Origin: Gammaproteobacteria bacterium
GTDB taxonomy: Bacteria; Pseudomonadota; Gammaproteobacteria; UBA9339
Assembly (NCBI GenBank): GCA_023135155.1
Contig: JAGLTR010000029.1
Span: 1-44,384 of the forward strand
Direction: 5' to 3'
DNA length: 44,384 nucleotides
The notes under the pieces were generated by a model. The model saw nothing but the letters and a program-made list of their open reading frames with translations. It ran no database searches and was not told the DNA's origin. Below, piece by piece: positions 7,006-10,512 of this stretch. Made by a program: the position numbers and the translations under genes. Within the stretch, counting starts at the first letter, position 1. Each line of letters begins with the position of its first letter.

Positions 7006-10000
7006 TTGTTTAAGAGGAGAGATGATGTGGTAGTAGATTCTAATTCAGCTGTTTTAACTAGTGACCGTAAAGAGGAGTTGCGCACGCACTTGTATCAATA
7101 TGTTGCGCAAATACTGTGGCGAACAATTACCGCGCGTGAAATTACTGCAGGCTTGTGTGCATTACAGAGTAAAAGCGCTGTATTTCCGGGGACAATTAAC
7201 TTATTTGGTATTACTAACTTGAGGGAAATGGCTAAGAGATATTTTCCCTTATATGGTGGTGGGGATAATAGTAAATTAACTGAAGAAGAGAGCAAGTATT
7301 CTAAAGAATATTTTGATGAGTGGGTGCGTATATTTGATCATGAGCATGATGCTGAAAATGTGAGGTTGGCTGAAAGAATTATTGATTTAACGAATGATAA
7401 TGATGTGCGTGCAGGCCTGTTGTCTGGAGAGATCTCCCCAGATTTTCTACGTAATATTGCTTTGATGTCATCAAAAGAGCATCAGGCATACTATAAAAAT
7501 GCGTTGGTATCTATCGCAGTAGCATTTGCCTTGTCTACCGAATATAGGATTTCCATTACCGAGATCGAGCAGCTCTCTGCTCGTGTTGATGGTGTTAAAA
7601 AAACTGTTGTGGATCAGGTTGAGGCGAATGAGGAGAGGCATTTGCACTTGCGATTTGGTGTTTTAACGCATCGGCAGGGAATTGAGAGTCGCAGGTCGCC
7701 AACGGACTTGAGCCTTGTGCAACAAAATGGGATGGGTTTTTTTGATTTCGTAAGCATGATCTTGGTGAATCCTAATAATATTGCGCAAGTTCCCGGGATT
7801 GTTGACGAATTAAATACCCCGCTAAAAATCACACTATTAAAAGATAATTTTATTACGTTTGATGATTTAATATGGCTAAACAGTAAAATTGGGATAGTGA
7901 ATGTTTATAATTTATTGAAGGTGATTTCTACGCATGATTATGCACGATTGATTCCTTGGATAAGGGGGCACATAGCCGGGGCTGAGCAAGAAGGATTGCT
8001 GGAGAATCTAAATGGGTTTTTAAGTAAAGTTGAGGCGGAATGCTTATGTTTGGCGATGGCAGCTGATATGAACCTAATGCAATTATTGCGCAAAGTTAAT
8101 TTTAATCAAAATGCTGAAAAGGATGTTGCAGTAGATGGCGTTCCTGGGCGTGCAGAGTTTTTGGTAAGAGTGTTATCGTTTATGGCGCAAAATACAGCGT
8201 TAAGCAAGCTACTACGAGAAGGTAAAATTGATTATCTGCATATGGTGCACCTATATGAAGCGAGGCTGACGCTTGCTAATTTCTATGTGCTGTTTTCCGA
8301 TCCATATCTTGTCGCAGCTCTCGATAAGGAGAGTTTTAGCGTGCCGCTTATCTTGCAATTTGTCAGTGCATTTGGTGAATTGACTGCAATTAAGATATTT
8401 GAGCAACTATCTGAGCCTCAGGGTCTATTATTAACCGAGTATTTAGAGGGGTGTGTGGCACAAAATACTGAATGCGCTCAAGAGAAAGGTGACTTTTATA
8501 AATTTAGGGATTTTTATTTGGCTATGGGCGCATCGGTTATTACGATGTTCGCGCGGCAAGATGATGGTATTGATGATGCCTTTGCATTAATTAATAAATT
8601 TAATTTTAGTCAGGAAGATCAAAGTTCTGATGCTTATGCGGATAGAAAATTTGTGGTTGGTTTTTTCTCTGCGTTACAGGGTTGGGAGTGTTTTGACAGC
8701 CTCTGGGGGGCAAAAAAAATCAGTTTAGCTAGTTTGGCTAGAACGGTTGAATATGTTGTAAGGGATAAGAATGGTCCGTTAAATAACGAGGAGTTTTATG
8801 AGCTTTTTCGATTGCGTGGTTTGGTGCAACTGTTAGCTTCGGGCTTAATAAGCTATGACGATATACTGGAAACTATGCAAGTTTTAGGTTTTGCAACTAC
8901 TAGCAAGATATTGCGTAATATCTCTCGTGATGCTGATAATGGCATAGCTATTTTTGAATATGTGCGGCAGGTGGTTAAGAGTGTTCGAGATTATGATAGG
9001 ACGGTAAATTCTGGTGTTAACTTGTTGCAATTGGCGGATTTCTATAGCTGGTTGTCACCGGATGAGATGGCTCGCATAGCTGAGATGAGTGTTGATTGTG
9101 TTGCTTTGCTTGAGCGTATTGAGTTTACATATAATGGTCCAACTGACAGTGGTCCTCGAGATTTAGCTTTGCCGGTTGTGCAGCAGGAGGATAGGTTCTG
9201 GCAGCTTTTTCACGTGATTATGTCGTTGCATTATTTGCGTGTTTTGATAAAAGAAAATTGGTTAGATATTTACGCTCTATTTTCTTTGTATAATGAAGCT
9301 CTGCAAAATTCATTCGCTGATACAGATAGTTTGATTAAGCTTTTTGCTGCTTTAAACTCTGAGGTGTGTTATGAGCTTATTAAAAAAGGGTGGTTGTCAG
9401 TTGCTGATTTTCTGACTAATGATCCTGCAGCTGTTACATTGCCGGAGCGAATAGCGACATTAAATAGTTTGGCTAAAATTCCTATATCTGTAATTGCTTC
9501 TATTGGGGCTGCAGGGGAACAACTTGTTTTATCTGATTATCATGCGTTAGTTCATTCGCAGAGTTTAGGCAGTTTATTGCAAAAGAGTGTGATTTCTTGG
9601 GACGATATATTTTTAGCAACAAGAGATCATTCTGTCCAGGAGATAATTTCTATTGCTGATAGTATAGTTGATTTGCTGAAGGATCAGAGGTTATTTGCAG
9701 CTTTATTAAAAACACAAAACTATCGTCATCATGAGTGTAATAGGCAGTTTGAGTTTTTGGGTTTTATACGCTCTTTTCCAGTTAAAAATAGTTCTAGCGA
9801 GCAGAACCAATTGGTGCGTTTAGTAGAGGTTATGTGCCAGGAACATGTGGCTGCTTTAATGAGCTTGCAGATCTCGGTAAAAAAAGCGCCTGACTCAATG
9901 GAAACAATCCGTACGTGTTTTATATCTTTTCAGAAACATTTATTGTTATTTGCAAGCTGGGAGTCGTTCAAAGGGTTTGTTGCTCGTATTAATGAAATTA

Positions 10001-10512
10001 ATGATAATGATTTGGTTTGGTTGGCTCAAAGAATAATTGAGCTAAAAGGTAAGCTGGATGGTGATGTTATTCAGCTGCAATACGCCGATTCGCTATTTAA
10101 GTGTGATTTTCGTAAGGATTTTTTGTTGGCGCAAATGAAAGATCAGTGGAAAGAGGATTCAGCAAAATATGCGCGTGCTTTGGTTGCTAGAAATAGTGAT
10201 GTGGATTGTATGCAAAATATGGGATTGCCTGTAGAAGTCCAGGAAATTGAGAGGTTGTGTGCGGAGATTGTGGCTAAAGCATTTACTGGAGAGGTTACGG
10301 CACGAGTTGCTGTTGAGATTGGGCAGATACTTGAACGGTTTATTGCTGTTTTAAAGGAGGAGGCAACTATGCATACTCCGGAGAGAGTTGCCAGACAGCC
10401 TGTTGCCGGTGCGGTGTCAGCAGCGTTGTTTTCACTGCCTCCGACAGTTGGTACCGATAGTGGTTCTGATCAGCCTGATCAGCTTGATGTTTTAATGGCG
10501 GCGTTGCGGTAG
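7006..10512 (+). CDS. large orphan protein (1161-1168 aa) inserted between tolR and tolA; degenerate helical-repeat protein of unknown function
   Basis: Uninterrupted ORF. The likely start is GTG at 7027, 7 nt after AAGAGGAGA (7012-7020); a TTG at 7006 is the alternative. No signal peptide, TM helix or known catalytic motif. At least 9 copies of a motif like LLxxGxISxxDhL occur (e.g. LLSGEISPDFL, LLKDNFITFDDLI, LLASGLISYDDIL, LIKKGWLSVADFL, LLQKSVISWDDIF). Confidence 0.8.
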   Translation: MFKRRDDVVVDSNSAVLTSDRKEELRTHLYQYVAQILWRTITAREITAGLCALQSKSAVFPGTINLFGITNLREMAKRYFPLYGGGDNSKLTEEESKYSKEYFDEWVRIFDHEHDAENVRLAERIIDLTNDNDVRAGLLSGEISPDFLRNIALMSSKEHQAYYKNALVSIAVAFALSTEYRISITEIEQLSARVDGVKKTVVDQVEANEERHLHLRFGVLTHRQGIESRRSPTDLSLVQQNGMGFFDFVSMILVNPNNIAQVPGIVDELNTPLKITLLKDNFITFDDLIWLNSKIGIVNVYNLLKVISTHDYARLIPWIRGHIAGAEQEGLLENLNGFLSKVEAECLCLAMAADMNLMQLLRKVNFNQNAEKDVAVDGVPGRAEFLVRVLSFMAQNTALSKLLREGKIDYLHMVHLYEARLTLANFYVLFSDPYLVAALDKESFSVPLILQFVSAFGELTAIKIFEQLSEPQGLLLTEYLEGCVAQNTECAQEKGDFYKFRDFYLAMGASVITMFARQDDGIDDAFALINKFNFSQEDQSSDAYADRKFVVGFFSALQGWECFDSLWGAKKISLASLARTVEYVVRDKNGPLNNEEFYELFRLRGLVQLLASGLISYDDILETMQVLGFATTSKILRNISRDADNGIAIFEYVRQVVKSVRDYDRTVNSGVNLLQLADFYSWLSPDEMARIAEMSVDCVALLERIEFTYNGPTDSGPRDLALPVVQQEDRFWQLFHVIMSLHYLRVLIKENWLDIYALFSLYNEALQNSFADTDSLIKLFAALNSEVCYELIKKGWLSVADFLTNDPAAVTLPERIATLNSLAKIPISVIASIGAAGEQLVLSDYHALVHSQSLGSLLQKSVISWDDIFLATRDHSVQEIISIADSIVDLLKDQRLFAALLKTQNYRHHECNRQFEFLGFIRSFPVKNSSSEQNQLVRLVEVMCQEHVAALMSLQISVKKAPDSMETIRTCFISFQKHLLLFASWESFKGFVARINEINDNDLVWLAQRIIELKGKLDGDVIQLQYADSLFKCDFRKDFLLAQMKDQWKEDSAKYARALVARNSDVDCMQNMGLPVEVQEIERLCAEIVAKAFTGEVTARVAVEIGQILERFIAVLKEEATMHTPERVARQPVAGAVSAALFSLPPTVGTDSGSDQPDQLDVLMAALR

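Follow-up and report, generated by a model that had tools for sequence, protein, structure and literature searches.

A 1161-residue orphan gene between tolR and tolA in a Coxiellaceae-like bacterium, and the possible secretion of its product

In the tol cluster of an uncultured Coxiellaceae-like bacterium, a 3.5-kb gene stands between tolR and tolA. Is it a real gene, how did this junction come to hold it, and does its product serve the Tol machinery or something else? We addressed these questions in the 44,384-nt stretch of DNA that contains the locus (hereafter the window), and call the gene X. The source is a metagenome-assembled genome (MAG) from cold-seep sediment, and its best TolQ matches are Coxiellaceae MAGs (68-74% identity).

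Gene X within an intact tol cluster

A sequence-only reading of this DNA had placed a 1168-aa open reading frame (ORF) in the tolR-tolA junction, co-directional with both genes. The ORF was confirmed at its maximal extent, from TTG 7006 to the stop at 10512. The likelier start is GTG 7027, which on direct reading has a Shine-Dalgarno-like AGGAG (7015-7019) 8 nt before it, giving a gene X of 1161 aa (7027-10512, forward strand, as are all features below). The public record has X at this length, and it is called as a gene both in GCA_030644425.1 and in a Logan assembly made independently. The ORF runs uninterrupted over 1161 codons, about 7 times the longest stop-free run observed in 50 shuffles of the window (174 codons). 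Its codon-position composition is that of the tol genes, with coding periodicity present, and its codon usage is the nearest to the window average among 37 genes (JS 0.031), a statistic biased toward long genes. X is hence a genuine, lineage-specific protein-coding gene of native composition. That it could be an assembly artefact or a decaying gene is a remote prospect: the source is a MAG, and the two assemblies with X probably derive from the same reads, but two different assemblers gave identical tolR-X and X-tolA junctions, both flanking genes are intact, and a run of codons of this length with coding periodicity argues against decay.

The genes around X were identified with Pfam as ybgC, tolQ, tolR, tolA, tolB, pal and cpoB, all seven intact, in canonical order and on one strand. 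The cluster begins with ybgC (4HBT thioesterase; 5223-5633) and tolQ (5623-6300). The 210-nt tolQ-tolR spacer bears a 55-aa ORF (6302-6469), which is a gene in the public record without an assigned family. Then come tolR (6522-6962 from its annotated start, the ORF opening at 6510), X, and tolA (10563-11423), which starts with GTG and is intact, with a TM helix and a C-terminal TolA domain. The remaining genes are tolB (11766-13043, also supported by the public record), pal (13059-13586) and cpoB/ybgF (13589-14482). Strong terminators of the region are found only at 5102-5124, a hairpin 5' of ybgC that closes the ruvB unit and is also a REP-like copy, and at 14490-14514, after cpoB, where the cluster ends. 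As a parallel to X, ruvA and ruvB are themselves split in this genome by another protein without a family match.

The spacers on both sides of X agree with what had been read from the sequence, namely gaps of about 45-65 nt and of 50 nt without terminator hairpins. The tolR-X spacer measures 64 nt (6963-7026) and the X-tolA spacer 50 nt (10513-10562); both are free of terminator-like sites and fold no better than shuffled sequences (z = -0.34 and +0.53, respectively). A weak terminator-like match (10466-10482) falls inside the coding end of X, a weak promoter-like match in the X-tolA spacer (10526-10555; 9/12) is at chance level, and an Rfam scan of the tol cluster returned nothing relevant. 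Since X has neither a terminator nor a convincing promoter of its own, it most likely lies on a ybgC-tolQ-tolR-X-tolA message, and the proposal that it is probably co-transcribed with the tol genes fits its strand and its short, terminator-free spacers. Further downstream, a REP-like palindrome (11689-11711; fold z = -2.61) in the 342-nt tolA-tolB spacer likely marks a sub-operon boundary.

Relatives of X and of the tolR-tolA junction

X matched itself alone in a word-index search of 5.8 billion clusters (5.8e9), in an exhaustive phmmer search of 1.84 billion representatives (1.84e9) and in a scan of JGI metagenome contigs. A tblastn search against 80 related loci gave no match, and BLASTP revealed no similarity to the other orphans of the window or to the tol-adjacent genes of relatives. 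Among the latter is a 1207-aa orphan lying beside the tol genes of a related locus (L054), which is thus large too and unrelated to X. Pfam returned zero families at E <= 0.01, repeat families included, and no eukaryote-like domain, while searches with NCBIfam, PADLOC and PDB sequences yielded at most noise (Drt3a, flagellin). The earlier impression that the product matches no recognisable family therefore holds across Pfam, NCBIfam, PADLOC and PDB, and neither homology nor structure searches gave a clear match to a well-characterised family. X is a true singleton, with no relatives in any database searched.

The Drt3a match, a weak one from PADLOC/NCBIfam, is what might suggest a different sort of cargo: X would then be a toxin, a protein of anti-phage defence or the freight of a recently inserted mobile element. 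It covers aa 859-994, roughly 10% of X, with E = 0.0012 and 0.021, and its 14-16 bits are far below the cutoff of 200. Partner genes are absent, and around X we found no direct or inverted repeats, integrase, transposase or tRNA target, while GC content and codon usage are native. We consider such cargo improbable.

In all 70 related gammaproteobacterial loci with both genes, the junction is invariant, tolA directly following tolR (median gap 5 nt); a gene between them was found in 0/70, so the comparison of synteny with relatives recovered the tolR-X-tolA arrangement nowhere else. The cluster is split precisely at tolR|tolA in five informative loci (L003, L004, L008, L065 and L082), the two nearest relatives among them, and tolQR lies wholly apart from tolA in loci that include the nearest relatives. 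These breaks make the tolR|tolA junction a rearrangement hotspot, and in the Coxiellaceae-like clade of X it is a synteny breakpoint.

These data bear on the suggestion that X assists the TolQRA motor from the cytoplasm as a new accessory, for instance as a scaffold coupling the stator to a cytoplasmic process. Such a role would suit a gene that is co-directional with its neighbours tolR and tolA, is set off from them by short terminator-free spacers and lies in a cluster with a gene order that is strongly conserved in other respects (PMC7391070). However, an accessory role is unlikely because X is conserved in no relative: no homologue turned up in any database searched, the 70 junctions lack it, tolQR and tolA are separated even among the nearest relatives, and TolQ, TolR and TolA are here ordinary and intact. 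The best 19-residue Kyte-Doolittle mean of X is 1.55, compared to 2.15-2.5 for TolQ/R/A, so that no TM helix is predicted, and its N-terminus is polar, with no signal-peptide-like sequence by eye. X thus shows no mark of envelope localisation (TM helix, signal peptide or lipobox), in contrast to TolQ/R/A, TolB, Pal and CpoB. The claim that it differs in this from every other product of the operon is right for X and too broad for the operon, as YbgC, the sole exception, is cytoplasmic as well. We therefore regard the Tol accessory, one of the two readings first proposed, as highly improbable. A broader functional tie to the operon, in which X would either work with the proton-motive TolQRA stator from the cytoplasmic side or be a host-directed effector whose expression is hard-wired to an envelope and cell-division operon so that delivery tracks division, has in our judgement a very small chance of being correct.

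Motif copies and predicted structure of X

The sequence-only reading had counted at least nine copies of a degenerate motif, LLxxGxISxxDhL, and proposed a helical-repeat scaffold. The strings are there at the positions given, yet nine is an overcount. A leave-one-out PSSM test recovers three of the nine: QLLASGLISYDDI (aa 601-613; 8827-8865; p = 0.003), which is the best-supported copy, ELIKKGWLSVADF (aa 783-795; 9373-9411; p = 0.013) and SLLQKSVISWDDI (aa 849-861; 9571-9609; p = 0.08). The other six score no higher than the best site of a shuffled sequence. Regular-expression counts of the motif against shuffles are biased, the pattern having been derived from the same data. A 40-residue repeat profile showed no recovery at all in a leave-one-out HMM test, iteration of an HMM added no copies to its seeds, a BLASTP self-search gave nothing, and the self dot-plot was marginal (43 vs 30-36 in shuffles). 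Spacing between copies is irregular (36-139 residues), and X is therefore not a regular tandem-repeat protein. In place of a nine-repeat scaffold, which we dropped, we describe X as an irregular helical protein in which three copies of the motif can be recognised. Interpretations of the motif as the latter half of an EF-hand loop, as an ankyrin LLxxGADxN or as mTERF were also discarded, as profile support was absent: the HEAT, ARM, TPR, Sel1, ankyrin, mTERF and EF-hand family models gave no profile match to X.

Single-sequence AlphaFold2 models are all-alpha, with about 60 short helices, and of low confidence (pLDDT 39 for the full-length protein and 59 for aa 717-1025). A Foldseek search of these models against PDB gave generic solenoid and designed-repeat matches that were non-significant (E >= 0.006; top TM <= 0.3), and no fold was assigned. 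The original helical-repeat proposal is thus weakly supported; given the low confidence of the models, "scaffold" is a guess.

Possible secretion of X and comparison with known systems

Type IVB secretion signals consist of the last 20-30 residues, small, polar and acidic, with a Glu-rich E-block and a hydrophobic residue near position -3. Tandem TTAAT sites of the PmrA type are common upstream of effectors, without being obligatory, and polar tails are found too in fast-evolving orphans that are not secreted. The last 25 residues of X, LPPTVGTDSGSDQPDQLDVLMAALR (10435-10509), are a candidate for such a signal: a small, polar and acidic tail whose end is hydrophobic and which contains four Asp and no Glu, so that the classical E-block is absent. 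By a crude metric of small, polar and acidic content, chosen post hoc, this tail ranks second among the 37 proteins of the window, and the tails of X and of the three other window proteins without a full-length family match take ranks 1, 2, 3 and about 5. No PmrA-like TTAAT-N6-TTAAT site was found upstream of X, and the window is not enriched in near-matches (17 vs 14.6 expected). This finding, like the missing E-block and the lack of eukaryote-like domains, counts against a secreted X. The presence of a Dot/Icm system rests on taxonomy, because no dot/icm gene was found in the 66.5-kb contig; type IVB systems occur in almost all Legionellales (PMC8896642). Effector repertoires are also highly lineage-specific: of approximately 18,000 effectors in the pangenome of Legionella, just 8 are conserved (PMC8896642).

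A secreted effector, the other reading first proposed, is plausible for a Coxiellaceae-like organism and fits the polar, acidic tail. Our preferred explanation, held tentatively and at somewhat less than even odds, is that X, a gene peculiar to its lineage, encodes a probable substrate of the type IVB (Dot/Icm) system and owes its expression to read-through from the tol promoter. X would sit at a breakpoint junction of its clade, be transcribed within the ybgC-tolQ-tolR-X-tolA message and be translated from its own Shine-Dalgarno and GTG. The product, large and mostly helical with irregular helix-turn-helix units, would be synthesised in the cytoplasm; its tail would be recognised by the type IVB system typical of Legionellales, and it may then be delivered into a protist host and act there as a binding scaffold. 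Co-transcription, secretion and any host function are inferred in this scheme.

A different outcome, rather unlikely in our view although to be taken seriously, is that X is never secreted: a fast-evolving, lineage-specific cytoplasmic orphan, with a bacterial role unrelated to Tol-Pal or with no important role, that happens to occupy a junction permissive for it and owes its expression to read-through. The lack of an export signal or TM helix, the singleton status with native composition, and a secretion system that is not directly seen, together with the missing E-block and PmrA site, are all compatible with it. On the other hand, an intact 3.5-kb ORF without function would be costly to maintain in an envelope operon, Legionellales are known for secreted orphans, and X has a tail similar to the tails of the window's other effector-like orphans.

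The view that either of the two original readings would be new is overstated, since orphan effectors confined to one lineage are what Legionellales normally have (PMC8896642). Large orphans being routine in this order, only the position of X is unusual. If X were a secreted effector, it would be one more singleton in the very large effector repertoire of Legionellales with its fast turnover, from a deep-sea cold-seep lineage, and its value would be for cataloguing, leaving concepts unchanged. More instructive is what the locus suggests about operon evolution: tolR|tolA, a junction invariant in the 70 other gammaproteobacterial loci and a breakpoint in this family, has captured a 3.5-kb gene while the flanking genes are still intact. 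It also serves as a caution, as location within a conserved operon does not imply a common function.

Four known systems offer a frame for X. Large Dot/Icm effectors of Legionella and Coxiella include helical proteins of more than 1000 aa, such as SdhA. X is like them in coming from Legionellales, in being large, soluble and mostly helical with no recognisable domain and no relatives beyond a narrow lineage, and in having a small, polar, acidic tail and a location scattered among housekeeping genes. It differs in lacking a Glu-rich E-block and a PmrA-type site, in resembling no known effector in sequence or fold, and in that its secretion is predicted. With alpha-solenoids (HEAT/ARM/TPR, 14-3-3 and designed helical repeats) X shares an all-alpha prediction of about 60 short helices, solenoids as top Foldseek matches, and a recurring motif of helix, Gly turn and S/T-x-x-D/E N-cap; in contrast to them, it has no Pfam repeat match, no regular period and three recoverable motif copies.

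The tol cluster itself follows the E. coli-type ybgC-tolQ-tolR-tolA-tolB-pal-cpoB arrangement (PMC7391070), with the same seven genes in the same order and strong terminators bounding them, and departs from it in the 3.5-kb X, in the 55-aa ORF between tolQ and tolR, and in the 342-nt tolA-tolB spacer with its REP-like hairpin. Legionellales-like relatives provide a parallel: a GGDEF-EAL gene lies between tolA and tolB in L054, L060, L071, L073-75 and L078-81. Like X, it is a non-Tol gene embedded in a tol cluster and co-directional with it, here in related bacteria. Unlike X, a soluble singleton with no domain, it occupies the tolA|tolB junction, is conserved in about 10 loci and encodes a membrane protein with recognisable signalling domains. 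The tol cluster therefore tolerates insertions in this order.

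The tol-pal cluster and the gene in its tolR-tolA junction

The window contains a complete tol-pal cluster, all on the + strand, whose seven genes each match their Pfam family well above threshold: ybgC (5223-5633), tolQ (5623-6300), tolR (6522-6962), tolA (10563-11423), tolB (11766-13043), pal (13059-13586) and cpoB (13589-14482). The tolR-tolA junction is filled by a single ORF, here called X, open from a TTG at 7006 to 10512. An in-frame GTG at 7027, with AGGAG 8 nt 5' of it (7015-7019), is a candidate start and is the one used in the public record, giving 1161 aa. X is certainly a coding gene: it is stop-free for >1160 codons, where 50 shuffles of the window reach at most 174, its content of GC and purines per codon position resembles that of the tol genes, and no ORF of at least 100 aa overlaps it in another frame. 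MAG GCA_030644425.1 has X and its neighbourhood in identical form on a 66.5-kb contig, and so does a Logan contig that was assembled independently from run SRR13892601, part of a marine cold-seep metagenome collection. That X is an artefact or a pseudogene has little to support it, and we consider it very improbable.

A consensus scan placed the only strong terminator-like hairpins around the cluster 5' of ybgC (5102-5124) and after cpoB (14490-14514). The spacers on either side of X (64 nt toward tolR, 50 nt toward tolA) lack any terminator-like site and are no more stably folded than shuffles (z = -0.34 and +0.53), a weak terminator-like match (10466-10482) falls within the 3' end of the X coding sequence, and promoter-like matches are about as many as chance predicts (25 vs 24.4 expected). 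Given the terminator-free spacers and the chance-level promoter matches, the simplest reading is that X would be co-transcribed with ybgC-tolQ-tolR and tolA. Further downstream, the 342-nt tolA-tolB spacer forms stable hairpins (z = -2.61). In E. coli, ybgC-tolQRA and tolB-pal-cpoB are separate units of the tol cluster, and the spacer would suit such a division here.

Two other features of the spacers were observed. A 55-aa ORF (MEKSLSYEISGY...KSLL; 6302-6469, +), a gene call in the public record without a family match, occupies the 210-nt tolQ-tolR spacer; in L003 and L004, the loci of the nearest relatives, tolQ and tolR abut or overlap, so the spacer, too, is lineage-specific. A 23-nt REP-like palindrome, GAGACGCCC-N5-GGGCGTCTC, occurs 10 times in the window vs 0.01 expected by chance (5102-5124, 5137-5159, 11689-11711, 21848-21870, 23525-23547, 23560-23582, 27516-27538, 33846-33868, 37158-37180, and 37193-37215). 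All copies are intergenic, with three pairs spaced 35 nt; one is also a terminator-like hairpin after ruvB, another lies in the tolA-tolB spacer, and none flanks X.

Lineage and rearrangement of conserved clusters

Among GTDB species representatives, the closest TolQ proteins (68-74% identity) come from MAGs labelled Coxiellaceae or unclassified Gammaproteobacteria. The window also encodes surE-nlpD-rpoS, a class I aldolase, a J-domain-only protein and other family-less proteins, a content that we take to be consistent with a Legionellales genome. X has a native GC (0.401) and GC3 (0.355), its codon-usage divergence is the lowest of 37 genes (a statistic that favours long genes), and neither flanking repeats nor mobility genes were found at the locus. 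By these signs, X is not a recent foreign insertion.

We compared synteny across 80 loci fetched through TolQ, none of which gave a tblastn match to X. A tolA ORF directly follows tolR in 70 of the 70 loci having both (median gap 5 nt, maximum 649 nt), which matches the conserved tol gene order reported in PMC7391070. X is unusual in position only: all other tolR-tolA junctions examined are free of genes. The informative exceptions, which include the two nearest relatives, are L003, L004, L008, L065, and L082, where unrelated genes (for a PIN-domain protein, L,D-transpeptidases and family-less proteins) come after tolQ-tolR and no tolA was found downstream. Because the cluster is broken after tolR in these loci, the tolR/tolA junction is a rearrangement breakpoint in this family, and X occupies that breakpoint. 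The cluster ends after tolR there, and the next genes (L003 1890-2339, L004 1260-2339, L008 2448-4133, L082 9245-10216) encode a PIN-domain protein, L,D-transpeptidases of the LysM-YkuD type or a 561-aa family-less protein.

Conserved clusters are interrupted elsewhere too. In about 10 Legionellales-like genomes, a conserved GGDEF-EAL gene (~490 aa, TM helix at the N-terminus) stands between tolA and tolB in the same orientation, suggesting a c-di-GMP enzyme embedded in their tol cluster; its domains were Pfam-confirmed in L054 (4919-6379) and L071 (10266-11771), while size and position were the only criteria for the equivalents in L060, L073-75, and L078-81. After tolA and this gene, at the expected place of tolB, L054 encodes a 1207-aa Lys/Glu-rich family-less protein (6609-10232, +) with two C-terminal hydrophobic hairpins, unrelated to X. 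In the source genome itself a second conserved pair, ruvA-ruvB, is split by lineage-specific genes: a 559-aa family-less protein (37-1716, +) and a convergent, low-GC (0.347) PAS-PAS-HisKA-HATPase-receiver hybrid histidine kinase (1718-3820, -; L001 1987-7884). This group thus habitually takes up lineage-specific genes inside conserved clusters.

The X protein

X has a polar N-terminus and no TM helix (best 19-residue hydropathy 1.55 vs 2.15-2.5 for TolQ, TolR, and TolA). Pfam returned no family at E ≤ 0.01, a PDB sequence search gave only noise, and a scan of JGI metagenome contigs gave nothing. X itself was all that came back, both from 5.8 billion protein clusters searched by word index and from an exhaustive phmmer search of 1.84 billion representatives; on present data, X is a true singleton. 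NCBIfam and PADLOC yielded one sub-threshold match, to Drt3a (14-16 bits vs a cutoff of 200), and the idea that X is defence or toxin cargo, for which there is little support, seems quite unlikely.

AlphaFold2 models, built without an alignment as none was available, were all-helical and of low confidence, both for the full length (~60 helices, pLDDT 39) and for residues 717-1025 (pLDDT 59). Foldseek found nothing significant in the PDB (best E-values 0.006 and 0.013), and its top-ranked matches, with TM-scores ≤0.3, were generic solenoids (CRM1, mTOR HEAT regions, 14-3-3, designed helical repeats). X is thus predicted to be mostly alpha-helical, and no fold is assigned beyond that.

The sequence-only reading had described X as built from at least nine copies of a degenerate motif. 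The nine strings are present where reported, but fair testing leaves much less of the repeat than was claimed. A leave-one-out PSSM recovers three copies only (aa 601, 783, and 849; p = 0.003, 0.013, and 0.08 vs the best site in shuffled proteins) and misses the remaining six, a 40-residue profile fails the same procedure, and the copies are irregularly spaced, so that the nine-repeat array was rejected. An iterative profile search added no further copies and the self dot-plot scarcely exceeds shuffles. The motif core (helix end, Gly turn, S/T-x-x-D/E helix N-cap) is a generic helix-turn-helix junction, and X is a helical protein of irregular build that carries a few recognisable motif copies.

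What X may be

A role as a Tol-Pal accessory had also been proposed. One would expect an accessory to be conserved together with the machine, yet X is conserved nowhere, and we therefore rate this very unlikely. Dot/Icm effectors are typically large and soluble, without a family match. In Legionellales the type IVB (Dot/Icm) system is almost universal and its effectors show extremely fast turnover (PMC8896642). The C-terminal tail of X (25 residues) is small, polar, and acidic, and its end is hydrophobic; on a crude tail measure, chosen after seeing the data, X and the three other window proteins that match no family over their full length take ranks 1, 2, 3, and ~5 of 37. We therefore favour, tentatively and at somewhat below an even chance, X as a candidate lineage-specific Dot/Icm substrate that the tol promoter would express by read-through. 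This has real weaknesses: the accessible sequence (the 66.5-kb contig) holds no dot/icm genes, X has no Glu-rich block in its tail, no PmrA-like site and no eukaryote-like domain, and the tail metric is post hoc. The main rival, that X is a non-secreted, fast-evolving cytoplasmic orphan, is possible but on the unlikely side.

A 663-aa protein (42091-44082, -) whose one recognisable domain is a J-domain at its N-terminus (aa 3-67) also has a low GC (0.355) and a polar C-terminal tail, which makes it a candidate eukaryote-like effector. In a 221-aa family-less protein (24267-24932, -), the C-terminal tail is more polar and acidic than in any other protein of the window. X itself is a new singleton protein, yet proteins of this kind are routine in Legionellales.
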